From assembly GCF_054482595.1 (NCBI RefSeq), contig NZ_CM137008.1: a DNA stretch of 64,000 nt; one strand, given 5' to 3'. A program made the position numbers and the translations under genes. Below the pieces are notes generated by a model. That model saw only the letters and a program-made list of their open reading frames with translations, did not search any database and was not told the origin of the DNA. Below, one piece after another: positions 48,224 through 50,547 of this stretch; positions within the stretch are counted from its first letter, which is position 1; each line of letters opens with the position of its first letter.

Positions 48224-49234
48224 ATGAAGGCTGCAGTTGTTACGAAGGATCATCATGTTGACGTTACGGATAAAACACTGCGCTCACTGAAACATGGCGA
48301 AGCCCTGCTGAAAATGGAGTGTTGTGGTGTATGTCATACCGATCTTCATGTTAAGAATGGCGATTTTGGTGACAAAACCGGCGTAATTCTGGGCCATGAA
48401 GGCATCGGTGTGGTGGCAGAAGTGGGTCCAGGTGTCACCTCATTAAAACCAGGCGATCGTGCCAGCGTGGCGTGGTTTTACGAAGGATGCGGTCATTGCG
48501 AATACTGTAACAGTGGTAACGAAACGCTCTGCCGTTCAGTTAAAAATGCCGGATACAGCGTTGATGGCGGGATGGCGGAAGAGTGCATCGTGGTCGCCGA
48601 TTACGCGGTAAAAGTGCCAGATGGTCTGGACTCGGCGGCGGCCAGCAGCATTACCTGTGCGGGGGTCACCACCTACAAAGCCGTTAAGCTGTCAAAAATT
48701 CGTCCCGGGCAGTGGATTGCTATCTACGGTCTTGGCGGTCTGGGTAACCTTGCCCTGCAATACGCGAAGAATGTCTTTAACGCGAAAGTGATCGCCATTG
48801 ATGTCAATGATGAGCAGTTAAAACTGGCAACCGAAATGGGTGCAGATTTAGCGATTAACTCACGCACCGAAGACGCCGCCAAAATTGTGCAGGAGAAAAC
48901 CGGTGGCGCTCACGCTGCGGTGGTAACAGCGGTAGCTAAAGCTGCGTTTAACTCGGCAGTTGATGCTGTCCGTGCAGGTGGGCGTGTTGTGGCAGTCGGT
49001 CTGCCGCCGGAGTCTATGAGCCTGGATATCCCACGCCTTGTGCTGGATGGCATTGAAGTGGTCGGTTCGCTGGTCGGCACGCGCCAGGATCTAACCGAAG
49101 CCTTCCAGTTTGCCGCCGAAGGCAAAGTGGTGCCGAAAGTCGCCCTGCGTCCGTTAGCGGACATCAACACCATCTTTACCGAGATGGAAGAAGGCAAAAT
49201 CCGTGGCCGAATGGTGATTGATTTCCGCCGCTAA
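48224..49234 (+). CDS. adhP: Zn-dependent alcohol dehydrogenase, propanol-preferring (336 aa)
   Basis: Translation [42 protein letters not shown]...; zinc ligand motifs. Confidence 0.93.
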
Positions 49235-49380
49235 GAGGCCTTTGCTGCGACTGCCAGTCCTGGTGTCGCAGCATCGCACACTCTCCAACATGAAATGGCT
49301 AAATGGATTATTGTTGCGTAGGAAGGAACAATAATGATAGTGTTCCCAGAGAAGGAACGCTACTGAGAGTAAAGACACTA

Positions 49381-49665
49381 ATGAAAATGGCCAATCATCC
49401 CCGCCCGGGGGACATTATTCAGGAATCACTGGACGAACTTAATGTCAGCCTGCGCGAGTTTGCCAGAGCAATGGAAATTGCGCCCTCAACGGCAAGCCGA
49501 TTGCTGACCGGAAAAGCAGCTTTGACGCCAGAAATGGCAATTAAACTTTCCGTGGTGATCGGCAGTTCGCCGCAAATGTGGCTGAATCTGCAAAACGCCT
49601 GGAGTCTGGCAGAGGCTGAAAAAACGGTGGATGTGTCACGATTACGCCGTCTGGTTACGCAATAA
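49381..49665 (+). CDS. yddM: HigA-family Xre HTH protein without an adjacent toxin gene (94 aa)
   Basis: Translation [74 protein letters not shown]...; only about 146 bp separates it from adhP. Confidence 0.8.
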
Positions 49666-49717
49666 AAAAATGGCACCTTATAAAGCGCCATTTGAAACTG
49701 ATGACAAACGCAACATT

Positions 49718-49830
49718 GCCTGATGCGCTACGCTTATCAGGCCTACACGTTCACTGCAATCTATTGGATTTGAACGGTTTGTAGGCCGGATAAGGCGTTC
49801 ACGCCGCATCCGGCATGAACAAAGCCTACG
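49718..49830. repeat. REP/BIME cluster between convergent yddM and fdnI
   Basis: REP-like palindromes GCCTGATGCGCTACGCTTATCAGGCCTAC and GTAGGCCGGATAAGGCGTTCACGCCGCATCCGGC, flanked by hairpins at approx 49667-49695 and 49853-49878 that can serve as terminators. Confidence 0.75.
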
Positions 49831-49893
49831 TTGTCTACAATATGAAAATGGCGCTTCTTATAGCGCCATTTTCAGCTTAAAGTTCAAAAGAGA

Positions 49894-50547
49894 TTATATC
49901 CCTTCTTCACTCTCTTTTTTCGCTTCTGCCTTCTCGATTTCACGATACCAGCGTGGATGGTGTTTCTTCGCCCAGCGACGGCTCACCTTCCCTTCGATCA
50001 TCCCTTTAATCGATCCTTTCACCCAAAATGCCATATACATATGGATCAGGATGGCGTGGATCAGGATGATACCCGCAGCCGCGTGGATCAGCAGGCTATA
50101 ACGGACAACCTGCATCGGGAAGTACTGCGCAAAGTACGGACGCCAGATAATCACCCCGGTCACCAACAGCACGAAAATCATGCTCATGATCGACCAGAAC
50201 ATCATCTTTTGCCCGGCGTTGTACTTACCGACATCCGCCACTTTGTGCTCATTGCCTTTTAATACTTCGACAATGTTCAACAGCCACGGAATATCTTTCT
50301 TATCCGGGATGTTGTGATGCACAAAACGCACAAACATAAACATCAGTGCGACGAAAATCGCAATGCCGAAGAATGGGTGCAAAATACGTCCCATCTGCGG
50401 CGTACCGAAGGTTTGCGTCAGCCATTGCAGCGTCGGGAAGAAGAACGAAATCCCGGACAGCGCCACCAGGAAGAAGCAAATCACCACGGTCCAGTGACAG
50501 GCGCGATCAATAAATTTGGTGCGCACAATCATTTTCGACTTACTCAT
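49894..50547 (-). CDS. fdnI: Formate dehydrogenase-N gamma subunit, cytochrome b556 (217 aa)
   Basis: Translation [32 protein letters not shown]...; start overlaps the fdnH stop. Confidence 0.93.

Follow-up and report, generated by a model that had tools for sequence, protein, structure and literature searches.

The window (the whole stretch of DNA that was analysed, 64 kb long) comes from an E. coli chromosome. Around the gene studied here, it carries maeA, adhP, yddM, a REP cluster and fdnI, in this order and with fdnI on the minus strand. The adhP gene ends with a TAA stop codon at 49232-49234 and yddM extends from an ATG at 49381 to its last base at 49665, which leaves a spacer of 146 bp between them (49235-49380), the length previously counted from the sequence alone. 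The features of the locus are the following.

48224-49234, plus strand: adhP (alcohol dehydrogenase), upstream neighbour; placed by tblastn and ORF coordinates, and annotated as adhP in matching RefSeq genomes
49243-49273, no strand assigned: perfect 9-nt inverted repeat TGCTGCGAC / GTCGCAGCA without a T-run, just 3' of adhP; present in toxin-bearing and toxin-less alleles (alignments A1 and A4)
49274-49312, no strand assigned: 5' part of the spacer, strongly diverged and about 50 nt shorter than in the toxin-bearing allele (alignments A1 and A2)
49313-49329, no strand assigned: putative HigA operator O1, dyad GTTGC-N7-GGAAC (GTTGCGTAGGAAGGAAC); pattern count and conservation
49330-49341, plus strand: A/T-rich stretch AATAATGATAGT between the operators, a candidate -10 region, conserved in alignment A2
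49342-49358, no strand assigned: putative HigA operator O2, dyad GTTCC-N7-GGAAC (GTTCCCAGAGAAGGAAC); pattern count and conservation
49359-49380, no strand assigned: 22-nt linker, the deletion scar, where toxin-bearing alleles have 290 nt (alignments A1 and A3)
49381-49665, plus strand: yddM, 94-aa HigA-family antitoxin / HTH repressor; TIGR02607 match and identity with PDB 2ICP/2ICT
49668-49693, no strand assigned: terminator-like hairpin AAATGGCAC..GCGCCATTT just 3' of yddM, first of a duplicated pair (alignment A5)
49703-49820, no strand assigned: REP pair (BIME); sub-threshold Rfam naRNA4/ES036 matches, multi-copy in E. coli
49845-49872, no strand assigned: second hairpin copy AAAATGGCGCTTCTTATAGCGCCATTTT (sequence and alignment A5)
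49894-50547, minus strand: fdnI (formate dehydrogenase-N gamma subunit), downstream neighbour; adjoins the higBA/yddM locus across genera

The description of YddM as a small Xre/HigA-like HTH protein is borne out by profile searches. YddM matches TIGR02607 (antidote_HigA) with 93.7 bits (cutoff 47.7, E 4.5e-27), the match covering 80 of the 81 model positions, and contains a Pfam HTH_3 domain (39.1 bits, cutoff 23). It is identical over 94 of 94 residues (100%) to the crystallised HigA of strain CFT073, deposited as "antitoxin HigA" (PDB 2ICP/2ICT) and named YddM in the literature (PMC3968373), so that its HigA fold is given by a solved structure. The segment 49100-49900 (801 bp) was used as a query against 5426 complete E. 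coli genomes, 5333 of which carry the yddM locus. The same protein, WP_000781370.1, is encoded by every intact allele inspected, toxin-bearing and toxin-less alike. YddM thus belongs to the HigA family by sequence match, but the window has no HigB ORF or remnant immediately upstream that could be co-transcribed with it, whereas 1331 E. coli genomes and several outgroup species do have such a gene at the orthologous position. The window therefore carries the antitoxin alone, not a complete type II toxin-antitoxin module.

Downstream, yddM and fdnI are convergent and the repeats between them are extragenic. The presence of a REP cluster at this place, already noticed in the sequence, is supported by two observations: part of the 801-bp query containing the REP stretch recurs at a median of at least 39 places per E. 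coli genome, and the stretch matches the REP-derived Rfam family naRNA4 with 38 bits, under the gathering score. The cluster thus consists of repeated extragenic imperfect palindromes, as expected of REP/BIME elements. The yddM-fdnI spacer (49666-49893) varies in its number of copies of a unit of about 178 bp, made of the terminator-like hairpin and the REP pair. There is no copy in strains 165 and AVS0969 (one shared hairpin, about 50 bp), one copy in the window and in ECO_1_S, and two in a K-12-like strain (406 bp). In strains without REP, the single hairpin, equivalent to AAAATGGCGCTTCTTATAGCGCCATTTT, is shared by yddM and fdnI.

The adhP-yddM spacer and its putative operators

The sequence-only reading had seen no credible toxin ORF on either strand of the spacer, and had held that a HigB/RelE-like ORF or remnant beside yddM would speak against a solitary antitoxin. 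We looked for both, and no coding remnant turned up. On either strand, the ORFs lying within or extending over the spacer have no Pfam match at E<=1, and the HigB toxin of other strains, used as a tblastn query, has no match at E<=1e-3 in the whole 64-kb window. An Rfam scan found no RNA family in the spacer, and no sigma-70 consensus promoter was found in a scan of 49150-49950; an RpoD-holoenzyme site is listed in the adhP-yddM spacer by Shimada 2014 (PMC3946193). The frame-2 translation of the spacer (19 aa) contains a series of residues resembling a degenerate C-terminal end of HigB (W R I T F .. Y E D Y H *). This candidate was rejected because the corresponding DNA aligns with the operator region located upstream of the toxin gene, not with the toxin 3' end.

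What the spacer does contain is a pair of 17-bp dyads, O1 and O2, which are 29 bp apart, O2 ending 22 nt before the yddM start. Only two matches to the pattern GTTSC-N7-GSAAC exist in the 64-kb window, and both lie in the spacer; the expected number is 0.25, and only 1 of 100 shuffled sequences reaches two. Across 14 aligned loci, the dyad arms are invariant and the spacers are free. Among 30 enterobacterial loci (L005-L034), 22 show just this dyad pair upstream of higB, 28-29 bp apart, one shows the pair plus a chance match elsewhere, and two show a single dyad. The pair is found upstream of higB in Escherichia, Citrobacter, Buttiauxella, Enterobacter, Pluralibacter, Xenorhabdus, Chimaeribacter and Erwinia. 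As conserved arms separated by free 7-nt spacers fit the half-sites of a dimeric HTH protein, the dyads are most likely HigA operators, and YddM would be expected to bind them. YddM is one of ten K-12 candidates that Gao 2018 (PMC6237786) reports as confirmed DNA-binding proteins by ChIP-exo, with a motif derived.

Two variants of this control region deserve mention. In another toxin-less allele, carried by about 1000 genomes (90-95% identity band; strain 165, L049:433-449), O1 reads GTTCCTTCCTACGCAAC, which is the exact reverse complement of the window O1 GTTGCGTAGGAAGGAAC, with unchanged flanks; judging from this alignment, the imperfect palindrome is inverted over 17 bp. In strains WP4-S18-ESBL-07 (L050) and 19AR0646 (L051), a 29-bp deletion (window equivalent 49322-49350) has the length of exactly one O1-O2 period. 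It merges the two operators, leaving one dyad with the O1 sequence, and the A/T-rich stretch is lost. In WP4-S18-ESBL-07, yddM is moreover interrupted by a nonsense mutation at codon 40; in 19AR0646 it is intact. By subtraction, we estimate that up to about 180 genomes may have a shortened control region.

A 10-codon ORF overlaps O2 (window 49334-49366) and is found at the same position in loci L001 and L009-L019. It reads MIAFLLKEQG* or MVVFLLKEQG* in Citrobacter and, with a GTG start, VIVFLSREQG* in toxin-bearing E. coli. Where the toxin gene is present, the stop codon of this short ORF is the TGA within AAGGATGA, the ribosome-binding region of the toxin. The ORF is absent from Enterobacter and Pluralibacter, and is probably a by-product of operator conservation.

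Toxin alleles in E. coli and related species

Comparison with strains carrying a full pair had been proposed as a check. Some strains have, between adhP and yddM, a further gene described in its annotation as a toxin of the RelE/ParE family. ECO_1_S and ST95-32 carry it as an intact ORF of 92 aa, with a stop codon overlapping the yddM start (ATGA). The encoded protein, WP_000605676.1 for the CFT073-type toxin, matches Pfam HigB-like_toxin (1.4e-17). It also matches P. vulgaris HigB (4MCT, 8e-32), and in that alignment both the LHPL histidine and the YEDYH at the C-terminus are conserved. Toxin DNA was detected in 1331 of the 5426 E. coli genomes, always as a single copy, and the carriers include CFT073, 536, UM146, Nissle 1917, APEC IMT5155 and ST95. 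In 24 of 60 evenly sampled carriers (about 40%), the toxin gene is 278 nt long instead of 279 nt; this allele, annotated as frameshifted by RefSeq, occurs in ST131 and JJ1887 among others. From this sample of 60 carriers, we estimate that the toxin is intact in only about 15% of E. coli genomes. The toxin-less junction of the window type is present in 3819 of the 5426 genomes.

Toxin-less and toxin-bearing alleles are 97-99% identical in the flanking adhP and yddM genes. Where the window has the 22-nt linker, toxin-bearing alleles have 290 nt, which comprise the higB leader and the entire higB ORF. The original ribosome-binding site of yddM (GAGG, within the toxin 3' end) went with the toxin, and the promoter-operator region is the only surviving trace of the module besides yddM itself. 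Aligned to the full allele, the linker scores 13, for a shuffle mean of 13.8, and its similarity to any part of that allele does not exceed chance. MAFFT places a junction at a shared ATGAA (toxin codon 3 / yddM start), as if 272 bp had been lost through a clean microhomology deletion; this scenario was set aside, since neither end shows significant similarity to the linker. Immediately upstream of the yddM ATG, the strain-165 allele has ACACTGAT, 8 nt of which 7 agree with the 3' end of the toxin gene.

The 5' part of the spacer tells a less simple story. Despite nearly identical flanks, 49274-49312 is only about half identical to its counterpart in a toxin-bearing allele (L001:773-862). A short CGCACA(A/C)T motif in this part is shared with outgroups. 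Because of this heavy divergence and of the indel of about 50 nt, the alignments suggest that the toxin loss is old, or did not occur as one clean deletion. The diverged and shorter 5' spacer itself suggests either an old split between alleles or rapid change after the loss.

One genome, O157:H7 TR01 (L046), carries a mosaic allele in which a 5' spacer of the toxin-bearing type is followed by an O1 of the K-12 type and by the last 47 nt of the toxin gene joined to yddM. We considered it as a second deletion type, in which 47 nt of the toxin 3' end are kept, and set it aside, as it is unique to one of the 5426 genomes; other O157:H7 genomes have the window allele. The TR01 allele may be a rare recombinant or an assembly artefact.

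The direction of change was addressed with a scan for YddM in one genome per species, which yielded 41 loci on which tblastn was then run. Toxin and yddM lie directly beside fdnI in E. albertii, in Escherichia sp. MOD1-EC7003 (a cryptic lineage), in about 13 Citrobacter species or isolates, and in an Enterobacter, a Pluralibacter and another Enterobacteriaceae isolate; in several of these fdnI-adjacent loci, adhP is also immediately upstream. The two genes are also paired in the more distant Cedecea, Buttiauxella, Chimaeribacter, Erwinia and Xenorhabdus. As outgroups carry both toxin and yddM at the same fdnI-adjacent position, these comparisons identify the full higBA pair as ancestral at this site and the window allele as a derived loss.

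Outside E. coli, decayed toxin genes also occur beside an intact yddM: the toxin gene of Citrobacter sp. FP75 has an internal deletion, that of C. portucalensis is disrupted, as are copies in Xenorhabdus, and in Chimaeribacter californicus only the last 15 or so toxin codons remain. These decays are independent events. The scan also returned a 214-bp contig of about 1x coverage (L035) in the assembly of "Clostridium sp. CMCC3677", which carries the E. coli toxin-less yddM promoter and start with both dyads, and which is almost certainly E. coli contamination.

Origin and persistence of the solitary antitoxin

We propose that yddM is the surviving antitoxin of an ancestral higBA operon, from which the toxin gene was deleted while the control region was kept, and that it probably acts as an autorepressor (estimated probability of about 0.85). 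The starting point would be a chromosomal higB-higA operon, with the toxin gene first, located between adhP and fdnI. As the comparison shows, most E. coli outside the CFT073/ST95/ST131 group descend from a lineage that lost higB together with its leader (290 nt) and kept the 22-nt linker in their place. The operon control region with its two dyads was retained and now stands directly upstream of yddM. By analogy with HigA at the P. vulgaris Rts1 hig operon, one YddM dimer would bind each dyad and repress yddM's own transcription. With no toxin left to neutralise in cis, YddM would persist as a small Xre-type protein that binds DNA and controls its own gene. Its identity with the HigA of intact pairs in other strains leads us to expect that it can still neutralise its former partner. 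Under this proposal, two possibilities which the sequence-only reading had opposed, a relic of a lost module and a stand-alone repressor, are both supported at once: the former by the full pair found at the exact site in other strains and by outgroups showing that the pair is ancestral, the latter, as a repressor most likely still working, by the two retained operator dyads and the purely synonymous changes among toxin-less alleles.

These changes were counted between three toxin-less alleles of yddM, those of the window, of a K-12-like strain and of strain 165. They are separated by 5-7 synonymous substitutions and 0 non-synonymous ones (pS 0.07-0.10, pN 0), while about 19 non-synonymous changes would be expected under neutrality (pS of about 0.09, 213 sites). 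As the divergence among toxin-less alleles is purely synonymous, the pattern indicates that YddM is still constrained and that some function is probably selected. However, yddM alleles are not sorted by toxin state: the window allele is one site away from that of the toxin-bearing ECO_1_S and six sites away from that of the toxin-less K-12. Recombination could therefore import yddM copies that evolved beside a toxin, which may weaken the argument for constraint after toxin loss.

A stronger version of the proposal, which we regard as tentative, is that YddM has been domesticated, with purifying selection keeping it for one of two roles: that of a small transcription factor which also has targets elsewhere in the host, or that of standing immunity against incoming HigB-carrying elements. 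The rearrangements of the control region would then represent expression tuning, through the O1 inversion (about 1000 genomes) and through the O1-O2 fusion (a smaller group).

Immunity can also be considered in its own right, the orphan being kept to neutralise HigB toxins brought by plasmids or mobile elements and thus to spare the host post-segregational killing. Such a role is compatible with autorepression, orphan antitoxins have been discussed as candidates for it (PMC7354431), and YddM is identical to the working partner of a chromosomal HigB. HigB-family toxins are found on 539 plasmid records, 99 of them from Escherichia. However, no true plasmid homologue of HigB exceeds about 57% identity with the lost toxin, and type II antitoxins are usually specific for their own toxin. 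In addition, the three plasmid records at >=90% identity include at least one mislabelled chromosome. We thus find this explanation rather unlikely. The mislabelled entry is PLSDB record NZ_CP141089.1 (H176), a 4.94-Mb "plasmid" carrying the chromosomal toxin at 100% identity.

Toxin loss takes away the only obligatory task of an antitoxin, and yddM might accordingly be a functionless relic drifting towards a pseudogene, with no selected role. The genome combining a yddM nonsense codon with a control-region deletion would fit such a drift, as would the estimated 180 or so genomes with less than the full window-type control region, and the main text of the K-12 transcription-factor study gives YddM no phenotype (PMC6237786). 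This view is nevertheless difficult to reconcile with 0 non-synonymous changes where about 19 are expected, with a single protein accession in all intact alleles inspected and a locus present in 5333 of 5426 genomes, or with intact operator arms and the in vivo DNA binding reported in the same study (PMC6237786). We therefore consider it improbable.

As toxin-less genomes form the E. coli majority, yddM could also have been a stand-alone gene originally, the toxin having been inserted later in the CFT073/ST95/ST131 group. This is very improbable, as E. albertii, cryptic Escherichia, Citrobacter, Enterobacter, Pluralibacter and others have the fdnI-adjacent pair with the same operators upstream of the toxin, and as recognisable toxin decay is seen beside an intact yddM in Citrobacter sp. 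FP75, C. portucalensis, Chimaeribacter californicus and the ST131 frameshift. Finally, a cryptic toxin persisting in the spacer, or on the strand opposite yddM, is hardly credible: mechanical ORFs do exist (one of 74 aa at 49154-49378 on the minus strand, one of 90 aa antisense to yddM, and the 10 codons over O2), but they overlap adhP, yddM or the operators, none matches Pfam at E<=1, and the HigB tblastn search finds nothing in the window.

Under the favoured reading of a surviving antitoxin, yddM should be annotated as the orphan HigA of a degraded higBA operon, not as part of a complete toxin-antitoxin system or as a regulator of obscure origin. Beyond correct annotation, the finding matters little. 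The locus nonetheless offers a natural series of type II module decay, toxin first, within one species and its relatives: intact pair, frameshifted toxin, internal toxin deletions, full toxin loss with operators kept, operator fusion and antitoxin nonsense. As the orphan is expressed in K-12 laboratory strains, it could also affect assays of HigB-family toxins or hig promoters conducted in them.

Comparison with known systems

Several elements of this picture are already known, namely the orphan state of yddM in K-12 (PMC7232551), the protein structure, and DNA binding by YddM (PMC6237786). The increments added here are the polarity of the change, allele frequencies in 5426 genomes, the conserved operator pair, the synonymous-only divergence and the series of decay states.

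The closest known relative is the CFT073 HigA (2ICP/2ICT), to which YddM is identical over its 94 residues and which, with its toxin, is called the ParE-2/HigA-2 pair in AIEC NRG857c (PMC7232551). The CFT073/NRG857c locus resembles that of the window in its position between adhP and fdnI and in its upstream dyad pair. The difference lies in the gene for the 92-aa toxin and its leader, which are missing from the window and leave yddM there as the first and sole gene behind the operators. The chromosomal HigB-HigA module of E. coli K-12 (ygjN-ygjM, in the fadH-rlmG region) bears the same family name and is likewise a type II module showing presence/absence variation, but it is a separate locus, outside the window. 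It provides a mirror image of the yddM locus, as K-12 keeps the ygjN-ygjM pair intact while NRG857c and CFT073 have only its higA (PMC7232551).

The HigB-HigA system of P. vulgaris Rts1 (4MCT/4MCX, 6CHV) shows the same toxin-first order as the ancestral locus, and its HigA is matched by YddM in a PDB search (1.3e-18); unlike the window locus, it is plasmid-borne and complete. Two operators overlap its promoter Phig, and HigA alone represses about 211-fold through O1 and O2 (PMC12266136). The locus studied here similarly has two putative operators in its promoter region, whose sequence and spacing are defined by comparison among the present loci. More generally, yddM joins a class of orphan antitoxins whose genes are retained after degradation of the toxin. 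In the Klebsiella pneumoniae complex, 2253 orphan antitoxins have been predicted, most of which were judged to be remnants of canonical pairs (PMC7354431). Unlike the class in general, yddM has its ancestral pair, the deletion and the kept operators directly shown, and in a large part of the species the orphan is close to fixation.
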